Below the pieces are notes generated by a model. It did no database searches. It saw only the letters and a list, made by a program, of their open reading frames with translations, and was not told the origin of the DNA. From Dehalococcoidia bacterium (lineage in GTDB: Bacteria; Chloroflexota; Dehalococcoidia; Bin125), in NCBI GenBank assembly GCA_963663895.2, contig CAXXRD010000002.1:480001-544000 (forward strand): DNA of 64,000 nucleotides, written 5' to 3'. The first letter of the stretch is position 1. Every line of letters begins with the position of its first letter. Made by a program: the position numbers and the translations under genes. Shown piece after piece: positions 6,804-18,973 of the stretch.

Positions 6804-8519
6804 CTAGGTCTCACTGGCGCGGCGCGGCGCCACGCGAAAGTCATCGACGGCGGCGGTCCGGTCGATCACGGCGTCGATGACGGTGGGATGGCCGGAGGCG
6901 AAGGCCGAGCGCAGAGCGTCCGGGATGTCGCGGGCGTCGTCGACGCACAGACCGTCGGCGCCGAAGCCGCGGGCGATGCGCGCATGGTCGACATCGCCGA
7001 ACTCGGAGGCGATCAGCCGGTCCTTCTGGTGCTGGCGGACCATGCCGAGGGAGGAGTCGTTCATGACGAGCCAGACGGCAGGCAGCTCGTACTGCACGGC
7101 CGTGGCGATGGCGTGGACGGAGATCATGAAGCCGCCATCGCCGGTGACGCCGAGCACGGGGCGGCGGGGCTGCGCGACCTTGAGCCCGAGCGCGGCGGGG
7201 AGGGCCCAGCCCATGCCGGCAAGCCCGCCGGGACAGAAAAAGGTCTTGGCTTGCTGCGCTTGGTAGAAATGACACATCCACACGCGGTTGTTGCCGGCGT
7301 CCAGGGCGATGAGCGTCTCGGGATCAACGGATTCCTGGACGAGACGGACGAGGCGCGGCGGCAGCGGGGGAGCGGTGTCGCCGTGGAGCATTGGGTGCTC
7401 GTAGTAGGAGCGCGTGCGCTTGATCGCGGCGAGACGCTCGCTCCGGGCCTGGGTGTCGAGGGGGTCTTCGCGCAGGGTCGCCTCGCAGGCCGCGACGAGC
7501 TGAGCGAGGACGGCTTGCGCATCGCCGATGAGCGCCCGCTCGACGGGGAAGGTCCACCCGGCGTTATGGGGATCAATGTCGACCTGGAGGATCCTCTGAC
7601 GGGCGGGGTCGAAAACGGCGGGCCGCTCGCGCACGGTGTCTTGCGGGGTGAGCTTGGCGCCGACGACGAGGACGACGTCGGCGTCGCCGACCACCGCGTT
7701 GGCAACCTCTTGGCCGAACACGCCGACCATGCCGACGGCGAGGGGGTGGGTCTCGGCGATCGCGCTCTTGCCCTTGTAGGTCGTGGCGACGGCGGCGCCG
7801 AGGAGCTCGGCGAGGCGGCGGAGATCCTGGTGAGCGTCTGCCAGGTGGACGCCGTTGCCGGCGACGATGACCGGGTTCGCCGCGTTGATCAGGAGCTCGG
7901 CGGCAGGGACCACGTCATCCTCGGCGGCGACCGCGGGGGAGCCGGGGAGGTAGCCGGCGGTGGGATGGATGTAGGGGGCGTGCGCTTCGTCCACGTCGTC
8001 GAGGACGGCTTGGCTGCGGAAGACGACGGCGGCGGGACCGGGGCGGCCGCTGGTGGCGTGCTTGATGGCGAGCTGGGTGCCGATGACCGCTTCCTTGGCC
8101 GTGGCGGCCAGGGTGGTGTACTTGGTCATGGCGCGGAAGATGGCGACGATGTCCGGGCTGCCGTGGTCGCCCGTGACGGACTGGTTGGCGGGGTGCTGGG
8201 GCATGAGACCGTCCGACGTATCGGTGATGATCACCATCGGGGAGCCGCTGACGAAGGCCTCCATGACGCCGAAAGCGGCGTTCGAACCGATGAAGGCGCC
8301 CTGGCCCATGATGAGGGCGGGGCGGCCGGCAGCGCGGGCGTAGGCATCCGCCATGATGGAAGCCCCGTGCTCGTGGCGGACGAGGATGGAGGTGACGCGT
8401 TCGCGCTGGTCGTAGAGGCCGTCGAAGATCTCGAGGGTGCCGCCGCCCGGAAGGCCGAAGACGTGCTGAATGCCGGACTCGGCCAGGACGCGCGCGATCA
8501 GCTCTTTCGCCTTCGCCAT
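6804..8519 (-). CDS. Thiamine-pyrophosphate-dependent enzyme (acetolactate synthase-like family)
   Basis: VFGLPGG, VRHEHGA (catalytic Glu), SGRPGP, GDGGF...MND TPP-binding motif. Confidence 0.9.
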   Translation of the reverse strand: MAKAKELIARVLAESGIQHVFGLPGGGTLEIFDGLYDQRERVTSILVRHEHGASIMADAYARAAGRPALIMGQGAFIGSNAAFGVMEAFVSGSPMVIITDTSDGLMPQHPANQSVTGDHGSPDIVAIFRAMTKYTTLAATAKEAVIGTQLAIKHATSGRPGPAAVVFRSQAVLDDVDEAHAPYIHPTAGYLPGSPAVAAEDDVVPAAELLINAANPVIVAGNGVHLADAHQDLRRLAELLGAAVATTYKGKSAIAETHPLAVGMVGVFGQEVANAVVGDADVVLVVGAKLTPQDTVRERPAVFDPARQRILQVDIDPHNAGWTFPVERALIGDAQAVLAQLVAACEATLREDPLDTQARSERLAAIKRTRSYYEHPMLHGDTAPPLPPRLVRLVQESVDPETLIALDAGNNRVWMCHFYQAQQAKTFFCPGGLAGMGWALPAALGLKVAQPRRPVLGVTGDGGFMISVHAIATAVQYELPAVWLVMNDSSLGMVRQHQKDRLIASEFGDVDHARIARGFGADGLCVDDARDIPDALRSAFASGHPTVIDAVIDRTAAVDDFRVAPRRASET

Positions 8520-8632
8520 GTGTCTCTCCCTGCGGCGCAGGCCCATGACTACAAGGTGCGCGGCGCTCGTGTCCAGTCACGCAGGCCCTGACGGGGCTTT
8601 CAAGGAGGCGGCGTTTGCCGTATAAGGAGCGC

Positions 8633-9658
8633 ATGCGCGATACCGCCCTAGCCGAGATCGAGAGTTGCTACGCATTGGGGTGGACGGACGGGCTGCCGGT
8701 CGTGCCGCCGACGCCGGAGCGCGTGGAGGCGATGCTGGGGGAGTGGGCGCCGCGGCGGGCAGAGGCGATCGCGACCTTGCTCCCGAGCGGCGGGGTGGCC
8801 ACCGTCGAGAAGATCGCGGCCAATGCGGTGATGGCGGGCTGCCTGCCCGCGTACTTGCCGGTCGTGATCGGCGCGGTGCAAGCCGTGGCGCAGCCCGCCT
8901 TCGGGTTGGAGGCCGTGCTGACAACGGTGCACTCGTGCAGCCCCATGCTGCTGGTCAGCGGACCCGTGGCGGCGGAGCTGGAGATGAACGCGGGCACGGG
9001 GGCGCTCGGCCCGGGCAACCGCGCCAACGCGACGATCGGGCGGGCGCTGCTCTTGGTGATGCGCAACGTGGCGGGCGCGGTGCCGGGCGGGCTCGACCCG
9101 GCGACGCTGGGGCAGCCGGGGAAGTACAGCTTCTGCTACACGGAGCAGACGGCGGACTCGCCCTGGGAGCCGTTCCAGGTCACGAAAGGCTTCGGGGCGG
9201 AAGAGTCGGCGGTGACGGTCTACGGAGCGGACGCCCCGCTCTGCATCGCGGAGATGGGACGGCCGGATCCGGAATCGATCCTGGCGACGATCGTGGAATC
9301 GGCGCTGATCCCGGGGAGCTACAACGCCTTTTTCCGCGAGGATCTGTTCTTGGTGATGTCGCCCAACCACGCGGAGGTGATCGGAGCGGCGGGATGGAGC
9401 CGGGCGGACGTGCAGCAGTACTTCTACGAGCACGCACGCTTGCCGGCCGGGCATCTGCGCCAGCGGGGGTTGTACGGGTTCGCCGAGGTGCCCGACTACG
9501 CCAATGTGGTGATGGAGGCGGATGCCGAGACGCTCGTGCCGGTGATCGCGAGTCCGGAGCGCCTGTGTCTGACGGTGGCGGGCGGCGCCTACGGCGGCTA
9601 TACCGCTATCGTGTTCGGCATGGGAAGCAGCGTCACGCTGCCGCTGCCGGCAGCGTGA
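8633..9658 (+). CDS. Conserved hypothetical protein of the type found next to UGSC-family (seleno)proteins
   Basis: GWTDGLPVVPPTPERVEAML, TVEKIAANAVMAGC, GNRANATIGRAL, TLGQPGKY motifs; RBS AAGGAG upstream of ATG 8633. Confidence 0.75.
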   Translation: MRDTALAEIESCYALGWTDGLPVVPPTPERVEAMLGEWAPRRAEAIATLLPSGGVATVEKIAANAVMAGCLPAYLPVVIGAVQAVAQPAFGLEAVLTTVHSCSPMLLVSGPVAAELEMNAGTGALGPGNRANATIGRALLLVMRNVAGAVPGGLDPATLGQPGKYSFCYTEQTADSPWEPFQVTKGFGAEESAVTVYGADAPLCIAEMGRPDPESILATIVESALIPGSYNAFFREDLFLVMSPNHAEVIGAAGWSRADVQQYFYEHARLPAGHLRQRGLYGFAEVPDYANVVMEADAETLVPVIASPERLCLTVAGGAYGGYTAIVFGMGSSVTLPLPAA

Positions 9659-9674
9659 GGGTTTGGAGGCCGAG

Positions 9675-10226
9675 ATGAACGTCCAGGCGGAGAGTTTCGT
9701 CAGCCCGGTCGCGGATGCCTTCCAGCCGGGGGAGCCGGCCGCCCGACCGGAGTCGCTGGACGATGCACGGGTGGGGCTGGTCGACTGCATGCTCAATCCC
9801 AGCGGCAACTGGGGGCAGGGGATCTTGGACGGGGCCGAGGCGGCGATCCACGATCGCTGGCCGGGCGCGGCCTTCGGGCGAGTGCCGCGTCCGCAGGTCG
9901 TCGCGGAGCCAACGGAAACCTGGGCCCCCGCGATGGCGAAGCAGTATCAGGCCTTGATAATCGCGGCGGGGGACTGAGCGACCTGCTCGTCGCGCAGTGT
10001 GCGCGACGCGGTGGCGGCGGAGAAAAATGGCGTGCCGAGCGTCGTTGTGCTGACCGACGGGTTGTGCTCGATCGCGAGCGAGACAGCGCGCGTGCTGGGA
10101 CGGGAGGGACTACCGATCATCACGGTCGAGACGAGCCTGTTCGGGCTGAACCGCGAGGCGATCGCGCAGGCGGTGGAGCCGCTGGGCTCCCAGATCGCCG
10201 AAGCGCTCACCCGCGGCGAGCCGTAA
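9675..10226 (+). CDS. UGSC-family thioredoxin-like selenoprotein (183 aa; UGA at 9975-9977 read as Sec, motif GD-U-ATC)
   Basis: ORFs 9663..9977 and 9999..10226 are in one frame separated by a single TGA; read-through gives IAAGD-U-ATCSSRSVRDAVAAEKNGVPSV; RBS GGAGG before ATG 9675; hairpin right after the UGA. Confidence 0.85.
9988..10008 (+). promoter_or_regulatory. Candidate bacterial SECIS element
   Basis: Perfect 9-bp stem CGTCGCGCA-GTG-TGCGCGACG starting after a 10-nt spacer from the UGA; the apical loop begins with G after 19 nt of intervening sequence. Confidence 0.75.
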
Positions 10227-10239
10227 ATCGCGAGCCGCC

Positions 10240-10533
10240 ATGATCGTCGAGATCCAGTGCCTGCCGAACCCGCCCGGCGTGCAGGGCGACAGGTACCGCC
10301 ACGTGGAGGCCGCGATCGCCGAGGTGGAGCGGTCGGGGCTCGTGTACGAGGTGGGCGCGCTGGGGACGACGGTGGAGGGCGATCCGGACGCGGTGTGGCC
10401 GCTCGTGCGCAGCGTGCACGAGGCCTGCTTGCGGTCGGGGGCGGAAGGGCTGGTGACGGTGGTGAAAGTCGAGCAGAGCGCCGGCGAGGAATCGCCGACG
10501 ATCCGCAGTCTCACCGGAAAGTTCCGCAGCTGA
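10240..10533 (+). CDS. MTH1187/YkoF-like thiamine-binding protein
   Basis: 97 aa; SGLVYEVGALGTTVEG motif typical of the family. Confidence 0.8.
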   Translation: MIVEIQCLPNPPGVQGDRYRHVEAAIAEVERSGLVYEVGALGTTVEGDPDAVWPLVRSVHEACLRSGAEGLVTVVKVEQSAGEESPTIRSLTGKFRS

Positions 10534-10994
10534 TGCAGATGATCGGAAGCCGGACGATGCCCTATCCGCGCGAGCGGGTGTGGGCGGCGCTGCAGGACCC
10601 GGCGATGCTGCGCAAGACGTTGCCGGGCTGCGAGGAGCTGACGCCCAGCGGGGAGAACAGCTTCGACGCCAAGGTGACCATCGGGGTGGCGGCGATCAAA
10701 GGTCGCTACAAGGGCAAGGTGCGGCTCTTCGACCTGGAGCCGCCGCACAAGCTGCGGATGGCGGTGGAGGGGGGAGGCGGTCCGGGCCGGATGCGGGGGG
10801 AGGGAACGGTAGAGCTGGAGAGCGTGACGGAGGGGACCAAGCTCGTGTACGACGGGGAGGCGGCGACGTTCGGGCCGATCGCGCGGGTGGGGCAGCGGCT
10901 GCTGCGGAGCGCCGCGAACAAGCTGCTGGGGGAGTTCTTGAGTCGGCTAGAGCAAGAGCTGGGCCGGGAGGGCGAGAGCGAGAGGGCATCCTAG
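10533..10994 (+). CDS. coxG: CoxG / SRPBCC-domain protein
   Basis: VWAALQDPAMLRKTLPGCEE, GPIARVGQRLL motifs; ATG overlaps the upstream TGA. Confidence 0.85.
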   Translation: MQMIGSRTMPYPRERVWAALQDPAMLRKTLPGCEELTPSGENSFDAKVTIGVAAIKGRYKGKVRLFDLEPPHKLRMAVEGGGGPGRMRGEGTVELESVTEGTKLVYDGEAATFGPIARVGQRLLRSAANKLLGEFLSRLEQELGREGESERAS

Positions 10995-11143
10995 CCGATC
11001 CCGCCCGGCGGCTCGTCGAGGCCAACTCGCGCCGGACCGCGCAGGGCGCGCTCTATAGATCGACCGGAACCTTGCGAAGCGGAGTAGGACCTGAGAGACC
11101 CAGCGAGGTCGTGGAACGCAACCGGCTGCGGCGATCCGGTCGG

Positions 11144-12544
11144 TTACGGCGTGTTGGGGGGCTCGAAGAGGCTGCGGGCAATGGCGATCACCCCGTCCAC
11201 ATTCGCCCCCAGTAGGCTCTTCGTCAGCGCATGCACGGTGTAGCGACTCTCCGTCGCCGGGTCGAAGATCCACACCTTTATAGGAAAAAGAGGGTCGTGT
11301 CCTGGACCGAGGAGACCGTAGATCACCTGTGCCGGCCGCCCGGCGATAACGCGCGTCTCCGTGACCCCCAGATCATCGCCGTTCGGCCGCCAGGCGGCAT
11401 TTCTGGGCCAACCACGTCCCACCGCATGCTCCCCTACGATCCGGAGACCGACCCCCCCAGCTGGCGAACGGTAGGACGCCTTGTAACCGTAGATCGTGGT
11501 CTCCGGGTCCATCTCGGCGCGCAAAAAGGCCCACCCATCGGGCAACGCGGGATCGCGCCAGTACGGATAGGTCCGGGCCGTCGCCAGATCCGTCGTGTAG
11601 TGGGGGTTGTCGCGGTTGTAGGCGGGCGGCGTGCTGCGCACGCGCGCTTCGGTTTCCCCTGTCCAGGTTTCGGGCACGATCTGGAAGGGGCCGTGGCGGA
11701 TGGGCGCGGTCAGGCTGGTCCCCCCCAGATCGGGCAGGACCACCCCCCCCCCAGGTGACACTGACGGCGGTGGTGGCGGTGGCGATCGCGCTGCTGCAGC
11801 CGGTGAAGGCGTAGGTCATCCAGGCGACCCCGAACGCCCGGGTCACGGCCCCCGCCGCGGGCGCCGGAGCGCTCGTCACCGCGTAGCGCACGAAGCAGTC
11901 GGCGGCCTGCTTCCACTCGACCAGGTCACCGGGTTCCACCGCGTCGTAGCGGGCCACCTGGGAGACGCCGTGAGTATCGTGCGTATGGATCAGCAAAGCG
12001 GTGGCCGTGCCGTCGCGCAGCCCTTCGTAGGTGGTGACGGCGGTACTGGTGTCGGCGGGATCTTTGAGGAAGACGTAGTGGCCCGGCTCCGCCACCGCGC
12101 CACTGAGGTCGTAGGTGTCGTAAAGCAAGGGCAGGGCTTCGGCTTCGTCCCTCGCTGTGGATGGATCTCCTAGAGGCGGTTCGCCTGGCGCCGGCGGCGG
12201 TTCAGAGGCGGCGGGCGCGGTTGACGCGGGCTCGTCGGGTGGCAGGGATGCCTCCGGCGCAACGGGCGCGACCGGTTCCGCGGGCGGCTCCGTGATGGGG
12301 GCATCGGCCGTAGGTGTTGGCGGTTCCGGAGTCTCCGCCTGCGGGGCAGGCGTGACCCGTGCGGTTGGCGTGGATGCGTCCGGCTCTGGCGGCTCGGCCG
12401 TCACTGCGGCTTGCGGAGCGGTCTCAGCAGGTGCGGGCGATGGGTCGCCGCCCACTGACCCGCCGCAGGCCGTCAGGCCGCCCGCAGCGCCAGGGCGAGG
12501 CCGGCGGCGAGCAGGAGGGTCGCCCCATGGCGGGCGCGATTCAT
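11144..12544 (-). pseudogene. Frameshifted putative lipoprotein with Pro/Ala-rich linker (about 466 aa when repaired)
   Basis: MNRARHGATLLLAAGLALAL[-1 shift near 12485]AGGLTAC lipobox; second (+1) shift in a G10 run (C10 at 11743-11752) joins VSVTWGG to VVLPDLGG. Confidence 0.65.
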
Positions 12545-12814
12545 GGCATGGTGCCCCCGCTGTCTTATTCAGGTTAACGCCGCCGGCGAGGGCGAGGTTC
12601 CGCACGGTGTCCACGATCGAACAGCGCCGGGCGCGCCGGTGCTTCGTCATGGCCCGATCAGCGGATCGCGGAGCAGCCCGTCAGCCGGAGGATGTGCGAA
12701 AACCCCCTAGAATCCCAGAGAAACTTGGTGCGGGGCCGGGGGCTTGGGACCCCCGACACGTATCGGCTAGTCTGTTGCTCCAATCGAGCACTCCTAGAGC
12801 GAAGGAGGCGCGCT

Positions 12815-13276
12815 TTGCCCGAGATCAGCGTGACGGTGAACGGCGTGGAGCATCGGGAGGAGGTGGAGCCGCGGCTGCTGCTGGTGCACTTGTTGCGGGA
12901 GCGGCTGCGCCTGACGGGAACGCACGTGGGCTGCGACACGTCCCAGTGCGGGGCCTGCACGGTCGTCCTCGACGGCAAGTCGGTGAAATCGTGCACGGTG
13001 CTGGCGGTGCAAGCGGACGGGAGCGAGCTGCTGACGATCGAGGGGCTGGGCAAGGACGGCCTCCATCCCGTCCAGCAGGGATTCTGGGATCAGCACGGGC
13101 TGCAGTGCGGCTACTGCACGCCGGGGATGATCATGGCCGCGTACCAGCTGTTGCAGGACGATTCCGACCCGAGCGAAGAGGCGATCCGTCACGGGCTGCG
13201 CGGGAACCTGTGCCGCTGCACGGGCTATCAGAACATCGTCCGGGCCGTCCAACAGGCGGCGCGGGCGACAAGCTAG
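12815..13276 (+). CDS. coxS: CoxS-type [2Fe-2S] small subunit
   Basis: [12 protein letters not shown] and QCGYCTPG...NLCRCTGY; TTG start after RBS AAGGAGG. Confidence 0.93.
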
Positions 13277-13286
13277 GAGGCGGACC

Positions 13287-15635
13287 ATGACGACGCAGGA
13301 ACGACCGCCCAAGCTGATCGGCGAGCCGATCAAGCGCCGGGAGGACCCGCGCTTGATCACGGGACAGGGATCGTACGTCGACGATCTGCAGCCGCTGGGG
13401 ACGCTGCACATGGTGATCGTCCGCAGCCCCTACGCCCACGCGCGGGTAACGGGCATCGACGTGAGCGCCGCGCGCAACGCCCCGGGCGTGGTCGCCGTGC
13501 TGACGCCGGAGGACGTGCAGCAGAGCACCGAGCCGGTCCCCGTGGCGGCGCAGCTCGAGGGGATGCATATGCCCCTGCGCCACGCCTTGACGGGCGAAGA
13601 GGTGAAGTTCGTGGGGGAACCGGTGGTGGCGATCGTGGCGGACGACCGCTACCTGGCCGCGGACGCGGCGGAGCTGGTGGAGGTGGAGTACGAAGAGCTG
13701 CCCGCCGTGATCGACCCCGAGCAGGCGCTGGAGGGCGGACCCCTGGTGCACGGCGATCTGGGGACGAACCTCTGCGTCGTCTCCCCGATCGGCGACGCCG
13801 AAGCCGCGGCGCGCGCGATCGAGGGCGCGGAGGTGGTAATCAAGCAGCGGCTGATGAATCAGCGGCTGATCCCGAATCCGATCGAGCCGCGGGCGGTGCT
13901 CGCGCACTACGAGCCGGGGCCGGGAACGCTGACGGTGTGGTCGTCGACGCAGATCCCGCATCTGCTGAAGACGCTGCTGTCGGCCTGCGCGCGCGTTCCC
14001 GAGCAGCTGGTGCGGGTGGTGGCGCCGGACGTGGGGGGCGGGTTCGGGTGCAAGCTGAACGTCTACCCGGAGGAGATCCTGGCGGCGCTGGCATCGCGAC
14101 GGCTGGAGCGGCCGGTGAAATTCGTGGAGACGCGGCAGGAGAACTACGTCGCGACGATCCACGGGCGGGACCTGATCGGACACCTGGAGCTGGGAGCGAA
14201 GCGCGACGGGACGCTCGTCGGTTACCGGATCAAGGTCATCGCCGACATCGGCGCCTACCAGCATCTCCTGACGGCGGCGATCCCGACGCTCACGGCGCTC
14301 ATGCTCCAGGGCGTGTACAAGATTCCGGCGCTCTCGGGCGAGATTGTCGAGGTGTTCACGAACAAGACGCCCACCGACGCCTACCGCGGCGCGGGGCGTC
14401 CCGAAGCGACCTACTACCTGGAGCGCGGCATGGACCTGCTGGCCGTGGAGCTGGGGGCCGACCCGGTCGAGCTGCGGCGCAAGAACTTCATCGGCGCGGG
14501 GGAGTTTCCCTTCGACACCCAGACCGGGCTGGTCTACGACAGCGGCGACTACGAAGCGGCACTGGACAAAGCGCTGGCGATCGTCGGCTACGACGACTTT
14601 CGCAACGAGCAGGCCCGGCTGCGGGAAGAGGGACGGTATCTGGGCGTGGGCTTCTCGACGTACGTCGAGATCTGCGGCGTGGGACCGTCGTCCGCGCTGC
14701 CGGCGGGCGGCTGGGAGGCGGGGACCGTGCGCGTGGAGCGGACGGGAAAGGTGACCGTCCTGACGGGCGTGTCGCCCCACGGGCAGGGGGAGGAGACGTC
14801 GTTCGCGCAGATCGCGGCCGAGCGGCTGGGGGTCGGGATCGAGGACGTGACCGTGATTCACGGGGATACGGCGCAGGTGTCGGCGGGGATCGGGACGTTC
14901 GGGAGCCGCTCCCTGGCGGTGGGCGGCACGGCGCTGGTGATGTCGTTGGACAAGATCGCGGCCAAAGCGAAGCGTTTCGCCGCGCACGCCATGGAGGTGC
15001 AGGCGGACGACCTGGAGTTCGAAGCGGGGCAGGTCTTCGTGAAGGATGCGCCGGAGAAGGCGATCTCGCTGCCGGAGATCGCGACGCTGGCCTACAACGC
15101 GGTCGATCTGCCGCCCGACACGGAGCCGGGGCTGGAGGCCACGAGCTACTACGAACCGGGGAACTTCACGTTCCCGTTCGGGACGCACGTCGCGGTGGTG
15201 GAGGTGGACACGGACAGCGGATCGATCGACCTGCAGCGGTTCATCAGCGTGGACGACTGCGGCAACATCATCAACCCGCTGATCGTCGAAGGGCAGATCC
15301 ATGGGGGGCTCGCGCAGGGGATTGCGCAGGCGCTGTACGAGGAAGCCGTCTACGACGCGAACGGCCAACTGCTGAGCGGATCGCTGATGGACTACGCCGT
15401 ACCGCGTGCGGATCAGCTGCCGAGCTTCGAGCTGGCGACGACGGTGACCCCCACGGGCGTGAATCCACTGGGCGCCAAGGGCGTGGGGGAAGCGGGCACG
15501 ATCGGGTCGACCCCGGCGATCGTGAACGCGGTGGTGGACGCGCTCTCGCCCTTGGGAGTCCAGCACATCGAGATGATGCTGCGGCCGGAGCGCGTCTTAG
15601 ATGCGATTCAGGCGGCGAAGGGGGGTGTGCGATGA
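13287..15635 (+). CDS. coxL: Molybdopterin hydroxylase large subunit, CoxL form II-like
   Basis: VGGGFGCK, active-site loop AYRGAGR (form II), GTFGSRS, GAKGVGE. Confidence 0.92.
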   Translation: MTTQERPPKLIGEPIKRREDPRLITGQGSYVDDLQPLGTLHMVIVRSPYAHARVTGIDVSAARNAPGVVAVLTPEDVQQSTEPVPVAAQLEGMHMPLRHALTGEEVKFVGEPVVAIVADDRYLAADAAELVEVEYEELPAVIDPEQALEGGPLVHGDLGTNLCVVSPIGDAEAAARAIEGAEVVIKQRLMNQRLIPNPIEPRAVLAHYEPGPGTLTVWSSTQIPHLLKTLLSACARVPEQLVRVVAPDVGGGFGCKLNVYPEEILAALASRRLERPVKFVETRQENYVATIHGRDLIGHLELGAKRDGTLVGYRIKVIADIGAYQHLLTAAIPTLTALMLQGVYKIPALSGEIVEVFTNKTPTDAYRGAGRPEATYYLERGMDLLAVELGADPVELRRKNFIGAGEFPFDTQTGLVYDSGDYEAALDKALAIVGYDDFRNEQARLREEGRYLGVGFSTYVEICGVGPSSALPAGGWEAGTVRVERTGKVTVLTGVSPHGQGEETSFAQIAAERLGVGIEDVTVIHGDTAQVSAGIGTFGSRSLAVGGTALVMSLDKIAAKAKRFAAHAMEVQADDLEFEAGQVFVKDAPEKAISLPEIATLAYNAVDLPPDTEPGLEATSYYEPGNFTFPFGTHVAVVEVDTDSGSIDLQRFISVDDCGNIINPLIVEGQIHGGLAQGIAQALYEEAVYDANGQLLSGSLMDYAVPRADQLPSFELATTVTPTGVNPLGAKGVGEAGTIGSTPAIVNAVVDALSPLGVQHIEMMLRPERVLDAIQAAKGGVR

Positions 15636-16492
15636 TCCCGGCGGCGTTCGAATACACGGCTCCAGACTCAATCGACGAGGCGATCGCACTGCTGGAGCGT
15701 AACGATGACGCGAAGTTGCTGGCGGGCGGGCATAGCCTGCTGCCGCTGATGAAGTTGCGGCTGGCAGCGCCATCGTTGCTGGTCGACCTGCGACGGGTAT
15801 CAGGGCTGGACGGGATCCAGGAAGAGAACGGCGCGATCCGCATCGGGGGCATGGTGACGCATGCGGCGATCGAGCGCTCCGACCTGCTGGCACGGCGGGT
15901 TCCGCTGCTGCCGGCGGTTGCGGCGACGATCGGCGACGTGCAGGTGCGCAATCGGGGCACGATCGGCGGGAGCCTGGCGCACGCCGACCCGGCAGCGGAC
16001 TTACCGGCGGCCATCCTGGCGCTCGACGCGCAGCTCGTCGCGCGCGGAGCGGCGGGGGAGCGGGTGGTGCCGGCGGCGGACTTCTTCGTGGACCTGCTGA
16101 CCACGGCGCTCAATCCGGGTGAGGTACTGACCGAGGTGCGCGTGCCGGTGCCCGGCACGGGCAGCGGCAGTGCCTATGCCAAGTTCCCGAACCCCGCCTC
16201 GCATTACGCGATCGTGGGAGTGGCGGCCCGGGTCGACATGCAGGACGGCAGGGTGCAGGAGGCGCGGGTCGCCGTGACGGGCGCGACCGCGACGGCGTAC
16301 CTGTCGGCGGCGGCGGCGGCGCGCTTGCAGGGGTCCAGCGGCGACGCGGCGGCGATCGCGGAGGCGGCCGGGCTGGCGTCCGAGGGCCGGGAGATGCTGG
16401 AGGACCTGTCGGCGTCGGCGGCGTATCGCACGCACCTCGTCGCAGTGCAGGCGCGGCGGGCGCTGACAGAGGCGGTTGCCGCGGCCGGCTAG
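15632..16492 (+). CDS. coxM: CoxM-type FAD-binding medium subunit
   Basis: MIPAAFEY, AGGHSLLPLMKLR, VRNRGTIGGSLAHADP; ATGA overlap with the coxL stop. Confidence 0.93.
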   Translation: MIPAAFEYTAPDSIDEAIALLERNDDAKLLAGGHSLLPLMKLRLAAPSLLVDLRRVSGLDGIQEENGAIRIGGMVTHAAIERSDLLARRVPLLPAVAATIGDVQVRNRGTIGGSLAHADPAADLPAAILALDAQLVARGAAGERVVPAADFFVDLLTTALNPGEVLTEVRVPVPGTGSGSAYAKFPNPASHYAIVGVAARVDMQDGRVQEARVAVTGATATAYLSAAAAARLQGSSGDAAAIAEAAGLASEGREMLEDLSASAAYRTHLVAVQARRALTEAVAAAG

Positions 16493-17664
16493 CCGGTGTA
16501 CGTGCGGCGGACTCTTGCGCTGATGCTGCACAGTAGCTCGTAGCTGATCGTATCCGCGCCGCCGGCGACCTCGTCCGCGGAGAGCGTCGCAGCGCCCTGA
16601 TCGCCGATGAACACCACCTCGTCGGCAGGCGCAGCGCCGTCCACCGCAGAGACGTCGATGGTGCAGAGGTCCATCGACACGCGGCCGACGATGGAGCAAC
16701 GCCGGCCCCGCACGAGCGCCTCGCCACGATTCGAGAGGGCGCGTGGAAGTCCGTCCGCGTAACCGCAGGCAACAGTCGCAATGCGCAGCGGGCGATCGGC
16801 AGTGAAGGTAGCGCCGTAGCCAAGGCTTTCACCGGGGGCAAGATCGAAGCAGCGGAGGATGCCGGCACGCAGGCTGAGGGCCGGGCGCAGGCCGATGGGC
16901 GGCGCCTGCGCGGCGACGGGGTCGATGCCGTAGAGGCCGATACCGGTGCGAACGGCGTCGAGGTGCATGTATGGAAAGCGGCGCGCGGCAGCGGTGTTAC
17001 ACACGTGCCAGGCAAGTTCGTGATCAGGGTCGACAGCAGATGCGAACTCGCAGAAGCGCCGAAACTGTTGCTCGGTGCGGGCGGAATCAAGATCATCGGC
17101 GCAGGCAAAGTGGGTATAGATCCCCGTCAGCCGCAGACTGGGATGCGCGCGTGTCACGGCGATAACGCGGGCGGCGGCGGCGGGCGCGAGGCCAAGACGC
17201 CGCATCCCGGTGTCGACTTTGACATGCAGTGCGACGGGGCGCATGAGACGGTCGGCCACGGCAGCGACGGCGCTCAGGGAGGCGACGCTGGAGGGGGTCA
17301 ACGCGAGACCGGCGGCGACGGCAGGTTCCGATTCGCTGTCCGTGTGATAGCCGAGGACAAGGATGGGTGCGTCGATACCGAGACCGCGCAGGGCTAAGCC
17401 TTCGCCAACGCGCCCAACGGCAAGCGCATCGGCACCCGCGTCCAGGGCGGCGACGGCACAGGCAGCCGCGCCGTGACCATAGGCGTTAGCTTTGACCACG
17501 GCGATCAGCCGCGACCCGGCACGGAGTGAGGCGCGCAGCGCGGCGACGTTACGGCGCAGGGCAGCGAGATCGACGATGGCGCGCGCGGCGAAGCCTGGGT
17601 GATGCGGCAGCGCCGGTTGCGCGGACTCGGCAGGGACGGAGAGCCGGGCGGTCGATTGAGTCAT
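16489..17664 (-). CDS. alr: Alanine racemase
   Basis: AVVKANAYGHG (PLP Lys), HVKVDTGMRRLG, GYADG, GRVSMD, TISYELL. Confidence 0.95.
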   Translation of the reverse strand: MTQSTARLSVPAESAQPALPHHPGFAARAIVDLAALRRNVAALRASLRAGSRLIAVVKANAYGHGAAACAVAALDAGADALAVGRVGEGLALRGLGIDAPILVLGYHTDSESEPAVAAGLALTPSSVASLSAVAAVADRLMRPVALHVKVDTGMRRLGLAPAAAARVIAVTRAHPSLRLTGIYTHFACADDLDSARTEQQFRRFCEFASAVDPDHELAWHVCNTAAARRFPYMHLDAVRTGIGLYGIDPVAAQAPPIGLRPALSLRAGILRCFDLAPGESLGYGATFTADRPLRIATVACGYADGLPRALSNRGEALVRGRRCSIVGRVSMDLCTIDVSAVDGAAPADEVVFIGDQGAATLSADEVAGGADTISYELLCSISARVRRTYTG

Positions 17665-17791
17665 GGGACTCCCGAGGCCGCCACGCCGCGCCCACCATAG
17701 CGCGGGTCGGCGTCTCAGCGAAGGGCCAACGGGCCTCGCCCGCTATCATGACCGCTGGATTCCACCGTCCAACGCGCAGGAGGAGCCACCC

Positions 17792-18973
17792 GTGCAAGTG
17801 TCGCTGTTCTACCTCCCGTCGCTCGGTCCGCGACGTGAGATCGAGAAGGGACTGGCAGGGCTGCGGGAGGACCTGTACCAGCAGATGCTGTCCGATCTGA
17901 AGGACCAGGCCCAAGCGGCGGACGCCCTCGGGTACGACTCGATTTCGTTCACGGAGCACCACTTCCACATCGAGGGGTTCGAGATCTCGAACAACCCGGT
18001 GTTGCTGGATCTTTACGTGGCGGCACACACCGAGCGGATCCGAGTGGGGCAGCTGGGGATCGTGCTCCCGGCGCACAGCCCCCTGCGGGTGGCCGAAGAC
18101 ATCGCCATGCTCGACCACATGTCTGGGGGGCGGGCCAACGCGGGATTCGCGCGGGGGTATCAACGGCGATGGGTCGATGTGCTGGCCCAGCACTTGCACG
18201 GGATTCACGGCGCGGCGCCGGGCCAGCACGACGCGATCGATCAGGCGAACCGCGAAGCGTTCGAAGATCACTACCGGATCATCAAGCGGGCCTGGAGCGA
18301 GTCGCTGATCAGCGATGCGGGACCGTTCTGGCAGATCCCGCCCCCGGAGACGCCGTGGGATTTAGACGCAACCCGCCAGTGGGGCTCCGGGATCGAAGAG
18401 GGCAAGGTCACGGCGATCGGGGTGGTGCCGAAGCCGCTGCAGAAGCCGCACCCGCCGATCTTCCAGCCGTTCGCGTCGAGTGAGCGGACAATCCGCTGGT
18501 GCGCGCGGGAGGGTGTCACGGCGATCCTGCCGCCGATGAACACGACCTTGCAGAATCAGCTGTACGCCGTGTACGCGCAGGAGGCGGCGAGCTGCGGCCG
18601 AACGCTGGCAACGGGCGAGGGGCTGGGAGTCCTCCGGGACGTGGTCGTGGCGGATACCGATCAGGAAGCGCTGCGGCTTTGGCGGAGTAGCGGGGCATTC
18701 GTAGGCAAGGCGTGGTTCACGCCGTTTCACTTCGGCGACGTGCTGGCGGAGCCGGGGGAGACGCAGCTGCCCAGTCCCGAACAGATGATGGAGCAGGGGC
18801 TGCTGTTGGTGGGGAGCGTGGGAACCGTGATCGAACAGCTGCGGCGGCTGCGCGAGATCACGCCGGTGCAGTGGCTGTTCGCCTGGCAATACAACGGGCT
18901 GATCCCGAATGCGAAGCTGCAGCGATCGCTGGAGCTGTTTGCGACGGAAGTCTTGCCGGCGTTCCGCGACTAG
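17792..18973 (+). CDS. Luciferase-like (LLM class) flavin-dependent monooxygenase
   Basis: FTEHHF, AEDIAMLDHMSGGR, PKPLQKPHPP; GTG start after RBS GGAGGAG. Confidence 0.9.
   Translation: MQVSLFYLPSLGPRREIEKGLAGLREDLYQQMLSDLKDQAQAADALGYDSISFTEHHFHIEGFEISNNPVLLDLYVAAHTERIRVGQLGIVLPAHSPLRVAEDIAMLDHMSGGRANAGFARGYQRRWVDVLAQHLHGIHGAAPGQHDAIDQANREAFEDHYRIIKRAWSESLISDAGPFWQIPPPETPWDLDATRQWGSGIEEGKVTAIGVVPKPLQKPHPPIFQPFASSERTIRWCAREGVTAILPPMNTTLQNQLYAVYAQEAASCGRTLATGEGLGVLRDVVVADTDQEALRLWRSSGAFVGKAWFTPFHFGDVLAEPGETQLPSPEQMMEQGLLLVGSVGTVIEQLRRLREITPVQWLFAWQYNGLIPNAKLQRSLELFATEVLPAFRD

Follow-up and report, generated by a model that had tools for sequence, protein, structure and literature searches.

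A gene at positions 9675 to 10226 of the stretch of Dehalococcoidia DNA analysed here (the window; 64,000 nucleotides of contig CAXXRD010000002.1) raises the question of whether an in-frame TGA at 9975-9977 ends one small protein and separates it from another, or is read as selenocysteine (Sec, U) within a single longer protein, and, if it is so read, what that protein is likely to do. Our best explanation as a whole, to which we assign a probability of roughly 85%, is that this is one gene encoding a 183-residue selenoprotein of the UGSC family, and that its product probably works in complex with that of the gene immediately upstream, termed X347, perhaps as a two-subunit reductase. The features concerned are the following.

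9675..10226, plus strand: coding sequence of a putative UGSC-family selenoprotein of the (U/C)-x-T-C subclade, 183 amino acids plus stop, from the read-through translation, Pfam and orthologues.
9665..9669, plus strand: Shine-Dalgarno-like GGAGG with a 5-nucleotide spacer to ATG 9675, suggested by reading of the sequence.
9975..9977, plus strand: UGA, the probable selenocysteine codon (U101), from the Sec/Cys column in homologues.
9984..9986, plus strand: TGC encoding Cys104, likely the resolving Cys of UxxC, from an invariant column in our 33-sequence alignment A2, the redox role being presumed.
9988..10008, plus strand: candidate bacterial selenocysteine insertion sequence (bSECIS) hairpin with a 9-bp stem and a GUG loop, falling within codons S105-A112 of the reading frame, from folding, bSECIS criteria and covariation.
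8615..9658, plus strand: X347, 347 amino acids, with a true TGA stop at 9656-9658, 16 nucleotides 5' of the selenoprotein ATG; the likely partner, from adjacency, fusions and complex prediction.

Mechanical calling of open reading frames (ORFs) yields two ORFs at this locus, 9663..9977 (104 amino acids) and 9999..10226 (75 amino acids, from GTG 9999), and translation bears out the statement of the first-pass annotation that they share one frame with only the TGA at 9975-9977 between them. Read through from ATG 9675, the frame gives 183 amino acids, ...AAGD-U101-A-T-C104-SSRSVRD, with TAA 10224-10226 as the terminator, and the GD-U-ATC motif that had been read at the in-frame TGA is present in that translation. 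Among the 853 TGAs on the plus strand of the window, three have a perfect 9-bp hairpin 16-37 nucleotides 3' of them, and of those three only TGA 9975 is flanked on either side by a long ORF in its own frame (134 and 82 codons). Other in-frame TGAs (22718, 48849, 26431, 33605 and 51185, and on the minus strand 14858 and 1801) were set aside, being judged by eye to be off-frame or in short ORFs.

The decisive support for a selenoprotein is comparative, rather than from the hairpin alone. The TGA is kept in the orthologues and in nearly all of the more than 120 family members examined; orthologues at 96, 88, 64 and 47% identity each have one in-frame TGA, and it occupies the same column in orthologues ranging from the genus to the class, as well as in other phyla. 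Matches were found in 42 of 61 related genomes, with exactly one in-frame TGA in all but one of the matches listed. A profile scan of 51 loci recovered 51 family ORFs, 50 of them with U at the motif, the sole Cys ORF (L068, CSTC) being a paralogue of a Sec form (L054, USTC) in the same genome. An independent sample of 80 loci from many phyla, seeded with X347, gave 75 family ORFs, of which 73 have U, one has Cys and the last is a fragment. Full-length Cys forms also occur in the window's own subclade (GDC[AIV]TC; P0127, P0128, P0130, P0131 and P0133), and the fusion proteins P0069 and P0071 are further Cys forms of it. The UGA column is therefore occupied by Sec or Cys in homologues (U in 50/51 and 73/75), as the first-pass annotation expected of a selenoprotein. 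The machinery for Sec decoding, which the annotation had proposed looking for, was found as well: the source genome (2.37 Mb in 5 contigs, 91% complete) encodes selA (498 bits), selB (327 bits, or 349 including a C-terminal stretch), selD (359 bits) and a tRNA-Sec (71 bits) whose anticodon ARAGORN reads as TCA. The selD gene (L010, G000:C2:564495-565427), approximately 20 kb past the end of the window, has one in-frame TGA of its own, so that the selenophosphate synthetase of this genome appears to be a selenoprotein also.

Taken at face value, the split call describes a pseudogene or two small genes, in which the TGA is a true stop, the product has 104 amino acids and the 75-residue ORF is separate or untranslated. 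Gene callers do split the gene in this way, and it is present in public protein databases as halves only, with four N-terminal pieces of 100-106 amino acids, many representatives that stop at residue 100 or begin at 109, and one entry (P0126) that is the window's own 75-residue C-terminal ORF. In addition, the stretch is contained in 20 sequencing runs from 11 studies, some labelled sponge or coral metagenome, and none of those 20 is an RNA run, a negative that leaves room for the split reading. Set against these observations are the conservation of the TGA column from genus to class and in other phyla, the invariant residues C104, P121 and G142 that lie 3' of the TGA, the single Pfam domain that extends across both halves, the conserved hairpin and the presence of the Sec machinery. 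The pattern of nucleotide differences argues in the same direction: of the 13 listed inside the coding sequence, 12 are synonymous (7/7 before the TGA and 5/6 after it), with E182D the sole non-synonymous difference and a TAA to TAG change taken as silent. Because the differences after the TGA are nearly all synonymous, the frame 3' of it appears to be translated, and we regard a pseudogene or a pair of small genes as very improbable.

A sequencing or assembly error, or an alternative code in which TGA means Trp or Gly, would also account for a bare in-frame TGA, and for nothing more. Throughout 9975-9977 and 9988-10008, the contigs of four runs from four studies that cover 9600-10300 agree with the window letter for letter, which answers the concern of the first-pass annotation that TGC or TGT might be read here instead; one of the four runs is near-identical and may be the source. 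Moreover, TGA terminates the upstream gene at 9656-9658, the tRNA-Sec has the matching anticodon TCA, and the non-Sec homologues hold Cys in the column, not Trp or Gly, so that this explanation is essentially refuted. Comparison of the sequences leaves it almost certain that UGA 9975-9977 is decoded as Sec and that this is a genuine selenoprotein gene; the hidden UGSC-family selenoprotein originally proposed is favoured alike by its Pfam match (described below), the Sec machinery, the conserved TGA and the hairpin. In a separate case, one UGSC gene from an Acidobacteriota genome (L125:3836-3895) has a second in-frame TGA 12 codons past its Sec codon (…SVHDTM-U-LE…), in a column that is variable among the other sequences, which might reflect another Sec residue, an error or decay of the gene.

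The hairpin at 9988-10008, CGUCGCGCA-GUG-UGCGCGACG, has a perfect 9-bp stem and a 3-nucleotide loop whose first base is G, and the distance from the UGA to the loop is 19 nucleotides (9978-9996); its coordinates, stem, loop and SECIS-typical spacing are as the first-pass annotation had given them. The bSECIS consensus, the model of bSECISearch as given in the legend to Fig. 2 of the 2026 review PMC13188914, is a loop of 3-9 nucleotides, a stem of 4-16 bp, a spacing of 16-37 nucleotides and a minimum free energy of -7.5 kcal/mol or lower, with a G at one of the first two loop positions, usually then G or U, and the window's hairpin agrees with that legend (3-nucleotide loop, 9 bp, GUG, 19 nucleotides, -14.8 kcal/mol). 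It probably serves as the bacterial SECIS for the genome-encoded SelB and tRNA-Sec. Folded in isolation, it is more stable than shuffled sequences (-14.8 kcal/mol, z = -3.32, 0 of 200 shuffles as stable). By itself, however, the hairpin is weak evidence, since its energy is ordinary within a 61-nucleotide G+C-rich context (z = 0.06, 100 of 200 shuffles equal) and since perfect 9-bp hairpins with 3-9-nucleotide loops give 23 register hits, at approximately 12 places, on the plus strand of the window (the expectation being a mean of 4.15 register hits over 20 Markov simulations).

Covariation was scored on gap-free alignments of homologous 60-nucleotide segments, A1 with 45 and A5 with 117 distinct segments. 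In A1, 79.5% of cells in the window's 9-bp stem were paired versus 73.7% after shuffling, with a covariation score of 0.141 versus 0.077 (0/500 shuffles as high for each). In A5, the values for a 6-bp core were 90.7% versus 80.2% of cells paired and 55 versus 14.7 double-change cells, and the covariation score was 0.268 versus 0.128 (0/500 in each case), with slid controls at or below 0.114. Two pairs illustrate the signal. At pair 30-36, 81 sequences have C-G and 31 have G-C, the 5'-arm change from UGC to UGG (Cys to Trp) being matched by a synonymous 3'-arm change from GUG to GUC (Val), and at pair 28-38, U-A occurs 85 times and C-G 8 times; sequences with C-G, which in A5 marks the window's clade, have Arg/Arg codons in place of Cys-or-Trp/His. 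Some results speak against a conserved SECIS: 206/500 shuffles reached the A1 value for further pair types and 161/500 the A5 value for pairs with a change on both sides, both non-significant; the RNAalifold consensus was weak, at -2.02 kcal/mol, and comprised just the inner 4 pairs; an Rfam search of 9900-10100 at E ≤ 10 matched zero families; and, because the sequences are related, the shuffle counts overstate the covariation signal. To our knowledge, Rfam is without models for bacterial SECIS elements of this kind. Among the paralogues mentioned above, L054 (USTC) has a weak hairpin of -10.2 kcal/mol and L068 (CSTC) another fold of -6.1 kcal/mol, a contrast between Sec and Cys forms that is suggestive for this single pair.

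A different perfect hairpin of at least 9 bp (register hits 9633-9635, loops of 4-8 nucleotides) occupies 9633-9658 of the window, in the last codons of X347, and ends at the TGA stop of that gene just 5' of the selenoprotein ribosome-binding site. Effects of this hairpin on mRNA stability or on translational coupling are possible.

With regard to family, the read-through protein matches the Pfam UGSC family PF24696 at 102.2 bits versus a cut-off of 25, over residues 19-179 and profile positions 15-171 of 172, a match that spans the TGA; the same profile matches all 33 members of A2, in which P11, U/C101, C104, P121 and G142 are invariant. Since the Sargasso Sea and Global Ocean Sampling (GOS) surveys, the UGSC family has reportedly been known as one of the most abundant families of prokaryotic selenoproteins. 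PMC2398784 (Zhang and Gladyshev, PLoS Genet 2008) counts 255 Sec versus 21 Cys forms of it in GOS, terms its fold a 'likely Trx-like fold' and reports a 'UGSC/Unknown_1 fusion', where 'Unknown_1' is probably X347. In the 2026 review, the family is still among selenoproteins whose 'biological functions remain largely uncharacterized'.

The window's protein departs from the canonical members in several respects, and these count against carrying their function over to it. Its score for the NCBIfam equivalog NF041046 is 78.4 bits, below the cut-off of 125, as compared with 51-72 bits for its clade mates and 153-174 for canonical members. In its motif, U-A-T-C, U101 and C104 are kept and G-S is replaced by A-T, and the '[PKQE]-H-P' motif is absent from it and its clade, with 'ETS...SLFGL' or similar instead. 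(This motif and an adjoining or fused X347 are family features derived here, the first from A2.) In view of the NCBIfam miss, the A-T and the missing PHP, the protein may not share the exact function of the canonical members; it is a UGSC-family relative, yet not an equivalog by the rule of NCBI, and with a score below the cut-off it would escape NCBIfam naming.

The first-pass annotation regarded the UATC variant as unusual; our analysis indicates instead that it marks a (U/C)-x-T-C subclade with both Sec and Cys members in several phyla. The window's protein and its orthologues L024-L027 stand apart from the rest by A-T for G-S and by a 4-residue insertion (SGNW). In a quick maximum-likelihood search on 117 family sequences, with support from the Shimodaira-Hasegawa-like approximate likelihood ratio test (SH-aLRT) only, 14 xTC rows and one other formed a clade with SH-aLRT 98. 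Sec forms in this clade come from the window's own family, a related family of its class, and metagenome-assembled genomes (MAGs) of a Gaiellaceae and of a Dehalococcoidia member, and its Cys forms include X347 fusions. By these sequence comparisons the subclade, which is new here, is distinct and well supported within the UGSC family. Further motif variants in the family are UGGC, USTC, UGHC and UGSS. The same genome holds a canonical UGSC paralogue on contig 1 (L021/L083, G000:C1:205693-206196; motif IEALAD-U-GSC, 153 bits with NCBIfam), and 32 nucleotides upstream of this paralogue lies a separate X347-type gene, so that, with the window's xTC pair, both subtypes of the pair are present in one genome. 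The second motif Cys is missing in an Eremiobacterota MAG (U-G-S-S, L088:2195-2254) and in a Xanthobacteraceae MAG (C-G-T-S, L137), which may be single-nucleophile variants.

The gene context, also considered unusual in the first-pass annotation, proved to be the standard one for the family. At 48/51 loci (the exceptions being L028, L052 and L071) the UGSC ORF has an X347 homologue no more than 1.5 kb away on its own strand, often on both sides, and, conversely, a UGSC ORF is present at 71/80 X347-seeded loci from more than a dozen phyla, where 73/75 of the ORFs are on the same strand. Natural fusions occur in both orders, with P0069 and P0071 joining X347 to an xTC domain and P0041 and P0152 joining UGSC to X347. 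The two genes also appear to diverge together, in that X347 copies beside x-T-C forms are 50-98% identical to the window's, whereas those beside UGSC/UGGC forms are 33-44% identical. On this gene-order and sequence evidence X347 is a near-obligate partner of the UGSC family, an association that is new here.

X347 itself has no Pfam family (at E ≤ 10 Pfam gave DUF7079 alone, at 0.19), zero NCBIfam matches and no PDB chain matched by sequence; its clusters in the ESM Atlas are unnamed or bear UGSC fusions; and among its relatives in databases, of which there are at least 7,890, all the named ones are 'hypothetical protein'. Its model is confident (predicted local distance difference test, pLDDT, 91.2; predicted template modelling score, pTM, 0.91); Foldseek returned 0 matches and no solved relative at E ≤ 1e-3, and a wide VIA structure search returned 0 of 48,161 chains at Z ≥ 5. 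The best VIA matches were class-I fumarate hydratases with Z of 4.5 and 4.4, and we take the resemblance of the model to hydratase, PrpD and cyanuric-acid hydrolase as a lead only. A catalytic motif could not be recognised in X347, and neither a Cys nor a Ser is invariant across all its paralogues, which counts against the reductase proposal. The module has expanded locally at one locus (L080, G056:C1:2864001-2884000), where a 9-kb segment contains a direct tandem of three X347 paralogues (9336-12473) and a further two at 15700-18222, accompanied by two UGSC-family genes and by genes for an arginase-family protein, a short-chain dehydrogenase/reductase (SDR) and a luciferase-like protein.

A physical complex between the two proteins was predicted with the two domains of the natural fusion P0069. 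These domains scored 0.81, 0.81 and 0.78 for ipSAE (interaction prediction score from aligned errors), as compared with 0.00 for the best of 3 controls; at least 88% of contacts agreed between runs and the partner pLDDT was at least 84. The predicted interface comprises, on the X347 side, GWTDGLPVVxPT and residues of the NAVMAG and RANATIGRA regions and, on the selenoprotein side, an N-terminal peptide around the invariant Pro together with residues 448-450 of P0069, of which 448 is the Cys aligned with U101 and 449-450 are the next two residues. Two considerations detract from this result. P0069 is a stand-in from another organism, 42% identical to the window's selenoprotein and 55% to its X347, and the calibration of the ipSAE mark, reached by 116/157 solved complexes and 2/215 mismatched pairs, holds only roughly for runs with custom alignments and a partner alignment of 2 rows. 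We nevertheless think it probable, from the modelling, that the selenoprotein physically complexes with X347; in such a complex, the N-terminal 'xxPxA/T' peptide and the Sec loop would pack on the conserved GWTDGLPVVPPT, NAVMAG and RANATIGRA surfaces of X347.

The function of the selenoprotein was approached through its fold and its distant relatives. The AlphaFold2 model (pLDDT 87.5, pTM 0.85) is a (beta-alpha)5 arrangement in which U101 starts helix 102-117. The best PDB rows from Foldseek are flavodoxin-like (azoreductase and WrbA; E ~1e-4, template modelling score 0.4-0.5), the VIA search gave generic Rossmann/flavodoxin-like domains (PurE, B12-binding and sugar-isomerase domains; Z 9-11), and thioredoxins are absent from the rows listed by Foldseek and VIA, which does not exclude families that went unlisted. 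A PDB sequence search with the selenoprotein or its profile returned chance-level rows only. We infer from the model that the UGSC fold is Rossmann/flavodoxin-like, as a fold class and with no family match. The 'thioredoxin-like' label of the first-pass annotation accordingly found no support in the predicted fold, nor in homology outside the family, which was detected to the Sec region of GrdB/PrdB only.

GrdB is selenoprotein B of the glycine, sarcosine and betaine reductases, and PrdB is subunit B of D-proline reductase. A canonical UGSC member, L028, has a weak match to TIGR01917 (GrdB; E 5.6e-4), and GRDB-type (PF07355) genes are present in 43/61 related genomes, although none was found in the window's genome (91% complete) or its two congeners. 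Read through, the GRDB-type genes encode ...LTST-U-GTxTR[CS]G...G[IL]P...IPHPLG..., and hhalign of the UGSC profile with nine such read-through sequences gave a probability of 95.5% and E 1.6e-8 over 99 columns, with the Sec columns and the PHP/HP-x-G motifs in register. The points that weaken the link are its extent, just 99 columns at 15% identity, and the failure of the UGSC profile hidden Markov model at E ≤ 1e-3 to find a GRDB-type ORF at 20 GRDB loci; PF07355 likewise gave zero matches to the window's protein and the 33 A2 members at E ≤ 1, and a PDB sequence search with the GRDB-type profile matched no chain. From these alignments, the Sec region of the UGSC family seems to be remotely homologous to the C-terminus of GrdB/PrdB, where their Sec lies, and the UGSC proteins are not members of that family. 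As an observation on the GRDB-type genes themselves (L166-L185, from relatives G003-G060), their Pfam matches end just 5' of the in-frame TGA; there is a long form of about 430 amino acids (...LTST-U-GTxTR...) and there are shorter forms, some with long C-terminal extensions (...LTP[ACV]-U-xxC[NHT]RSVG...FPxGxPLG), and together they look like a large selenoprotein set that is mostly truncated in annotation.

A true selenoprotein could still be a generic thioredoxin-like oxidoreductase that serves as a redox regulator or chaperone for X347 or for many clients. This would fit the UxxC at a helix N-terminus, the 'likely Trx-like fold' of PMC2398784, the one Atlas cluster of X347 that is automatically named 'Thioredoxin family protein', and the presence of a thioredoxin-reductase-like gene beside the module once (L082) and of a gene for a thioredoxin-tetratricopeptide repeat protein near L078. 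However, the model is (beta-alpha)5 with flavodoxin/Rossmann-like proteins as the top Foldseek and VIA rows, homology beyond the family was detected with the Sec region of GrdB/PrdB alone, and near-obligate adjacency together with repeated fusion to one family favours a dedicated pair. We therefore consider the generic oxidoreductase unlikely relative to a selenoprotein dedicated to X347.

How a dedicated pair of selenoprotein and X347 might work can be sketched tentatively as a two-subunit, selenol-dependent reductase, a mechanism that we take as the likeliest but that may well prove wrong. X347 would bind a small substrate; Sec101 and Cys104 of the small subunit would attack or reduce it, supplying a nucleophile or reducing equivalents; these two residues, at the helix N-terminus, would cycle between the selenol/thiol and the selenenylsulfide, and a thiol system would re-reduce them. 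The logic would be that of a Stickland reductase with a different large subunit. In PrdB, Sec is the nucleophile in a reductive C-N cleavage, and the final state is a selenenylsulfide.

The genes around the pair in the window are listed below.

10240..10533, plus strand: gene for an MTH1187/YkoF-type thiamine-binding protein, 13 nucleotides 3' of the selenoprotein (PF01910, 56 bits).
6804..8546, minus strand: divergent gene for a thiamine-diphosphate enzyme, acetolactate-synthase-like (Pfam TPP_enzyme N, M and C domains).
In frame 10257-10994 (region 10565-15635): CoxG-family gene, directly 3' of the thiamine-binding gene.
12692-13276: after a gap, the [2Fe-2S] subunit of a xanthine-dehydrogenase/CO-dehydrogenase-type enzyme.
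13287-15635: the molybdopterin-binding large subunit of a xanthine-dehydrogenase/CO-dehydrogenase-type enzyme.

The thiamine-binding gene may be in the same operon as the selenoprotein; it is beside the pair only in the close orthologues L024-L026, and its link to the pair is weak. The divergent thiamine-diphosphate enzyme, an SDR, the MTH1187-type protein and CoxG are the neighbours in the window and close orthologues, and the thiamine-diphosphate enzyme, which we take as context only, is kept in L024 and L026 and occurs again in L074. A molybdenum-enzyme pair similar to that of the window lies near the UGSC module in L085. At 13 wider loci, the recurrent genes encode family-III CoA-transferases, acyl-CoA dehydrogenases, enoyl-CoA hydratases, SDRs, family-5 solute-binding proteins and luciferase-like monooxygenases (CoA, coenzyme A), and no gene besides X347 is constant by a crude ORF picking that missed X347 itself in L074. 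Because the genes beyond the pair vary by locus, the substrate is not deducible from the neighbours, and this counts against the reductase proposal. Elsewhere in the window, two adjoining plus-strand ORFs of about 310-320 amino acids (1033-1995 and 2008-2934) lie between two amidase genes and have no Pfam match at E ≤ 1e-3.

This neighbourhood bears on one more explanation, a module for selenium or sulfur trafficking or for cofactor maturation in which the Sec/Cys protein carries a persulfide, a perselenide or a metal. CoxG genes and genes for molybdenum hydroxylases of the CoxSML type lie close by, both in the window and in L085, and could be read in this way, and the loss of the second Cys in L088 (UGSS) and L137 (CGTS) would fit a carrier with a single nucleophile. 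On the other hand, C104 is invariant in 33/33 A2 sequences, the second Cys is present in 71/75 X347-seeded ORFs, of whose four exceptions one is a fragment and one, an L054-type USTC, does keep the Cys, which leaves L088 and L137 as the only 2 true ones, and the CoxG and molybdenum-enzyme neighbours are not kept across loci. Such a module is improbable in our judgement, and a reductase formed by the selenoprotein and X347 is preferred.

The family to which the protein belongs is known; new here are the xTC subclade, a fold that is not detectably thioredoxin-like together with the GrdB/PrdB link, and the X347 partner. In practical terms, standard annotation splits or truncates the gene, leaving halves in the public databases. 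The near-obligate partner, the predicted Sec-partner interface and the remote GrdB/PrdB homology provide three handles on the function of the family, the partner and the GrdB/PrdB link adding value because they make that function testable. It is conceivable, if somewhat doubtful, that X347, which by itself occurs in more than 12 phyla, and the UGSC protein make up a selenium-dependent reductase of two subunits that is widespread among aerobic heterotrophs, with a Sec subunit that shares the stock of the Stickland reductase selenoproteins GrdB/PrdB. If so, one of the most abundant 'orphan' selenoprotein families of aquatic metagenomes would be the nucleophile or redox subunit of a new enzyme class with a small carboxylate, a CoA ester or an amine as substrate, the catalytic partner would have a fold without a solved relative, and the window's (U/C)-x-T-C clade would represent a second specificity type.

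Among known systems, the closest is the UGSC family itself, with which the window's protein shares a length of about 180 amino acids, Sec in a UxxC behind a beta-strand, a SECIS in the same register, a second conserved domain as partner or fusion, and a strong excess of Sec over Cys forms (50:1 and 73:1 here, and 255:21 in the GOS figures of PMC2398784). It differs from the canonical members in its U-A-T-C, the SGNW insertion, the lack of PHP, a score below the cut-off and a separate clade with its own Cys forms. The likeness to selenoproteins of the thioredoxin fold with UxxC or CxxU (thioredoxin-like, peroxiredoxin-like and SelW-like) consists of U-x-x-C at a helix N-terminus and a function inferred from the motif; unlike them, the window's protein is predicted to have five parallel beta-alpha units, with flavodoxin/Rossmann-like proteins as the best neighbours, each match being generic. 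What the UGSC family shares with GrdB/PrdB in the profile alignment is a strand-U-G-[ST]-x-[TC] followed by a G[IL]P strand and then 'PHP-x-G', and in both cases a larger second subunit is a known or predicted partner. They differ in the N-terminal half and overall size, and in that the partner of the UGSC protein is X347, a gene for which was not present near any of the 20 GRDB loci examined, and not a pyruvoyl proprotein (PrdA/GrdE).

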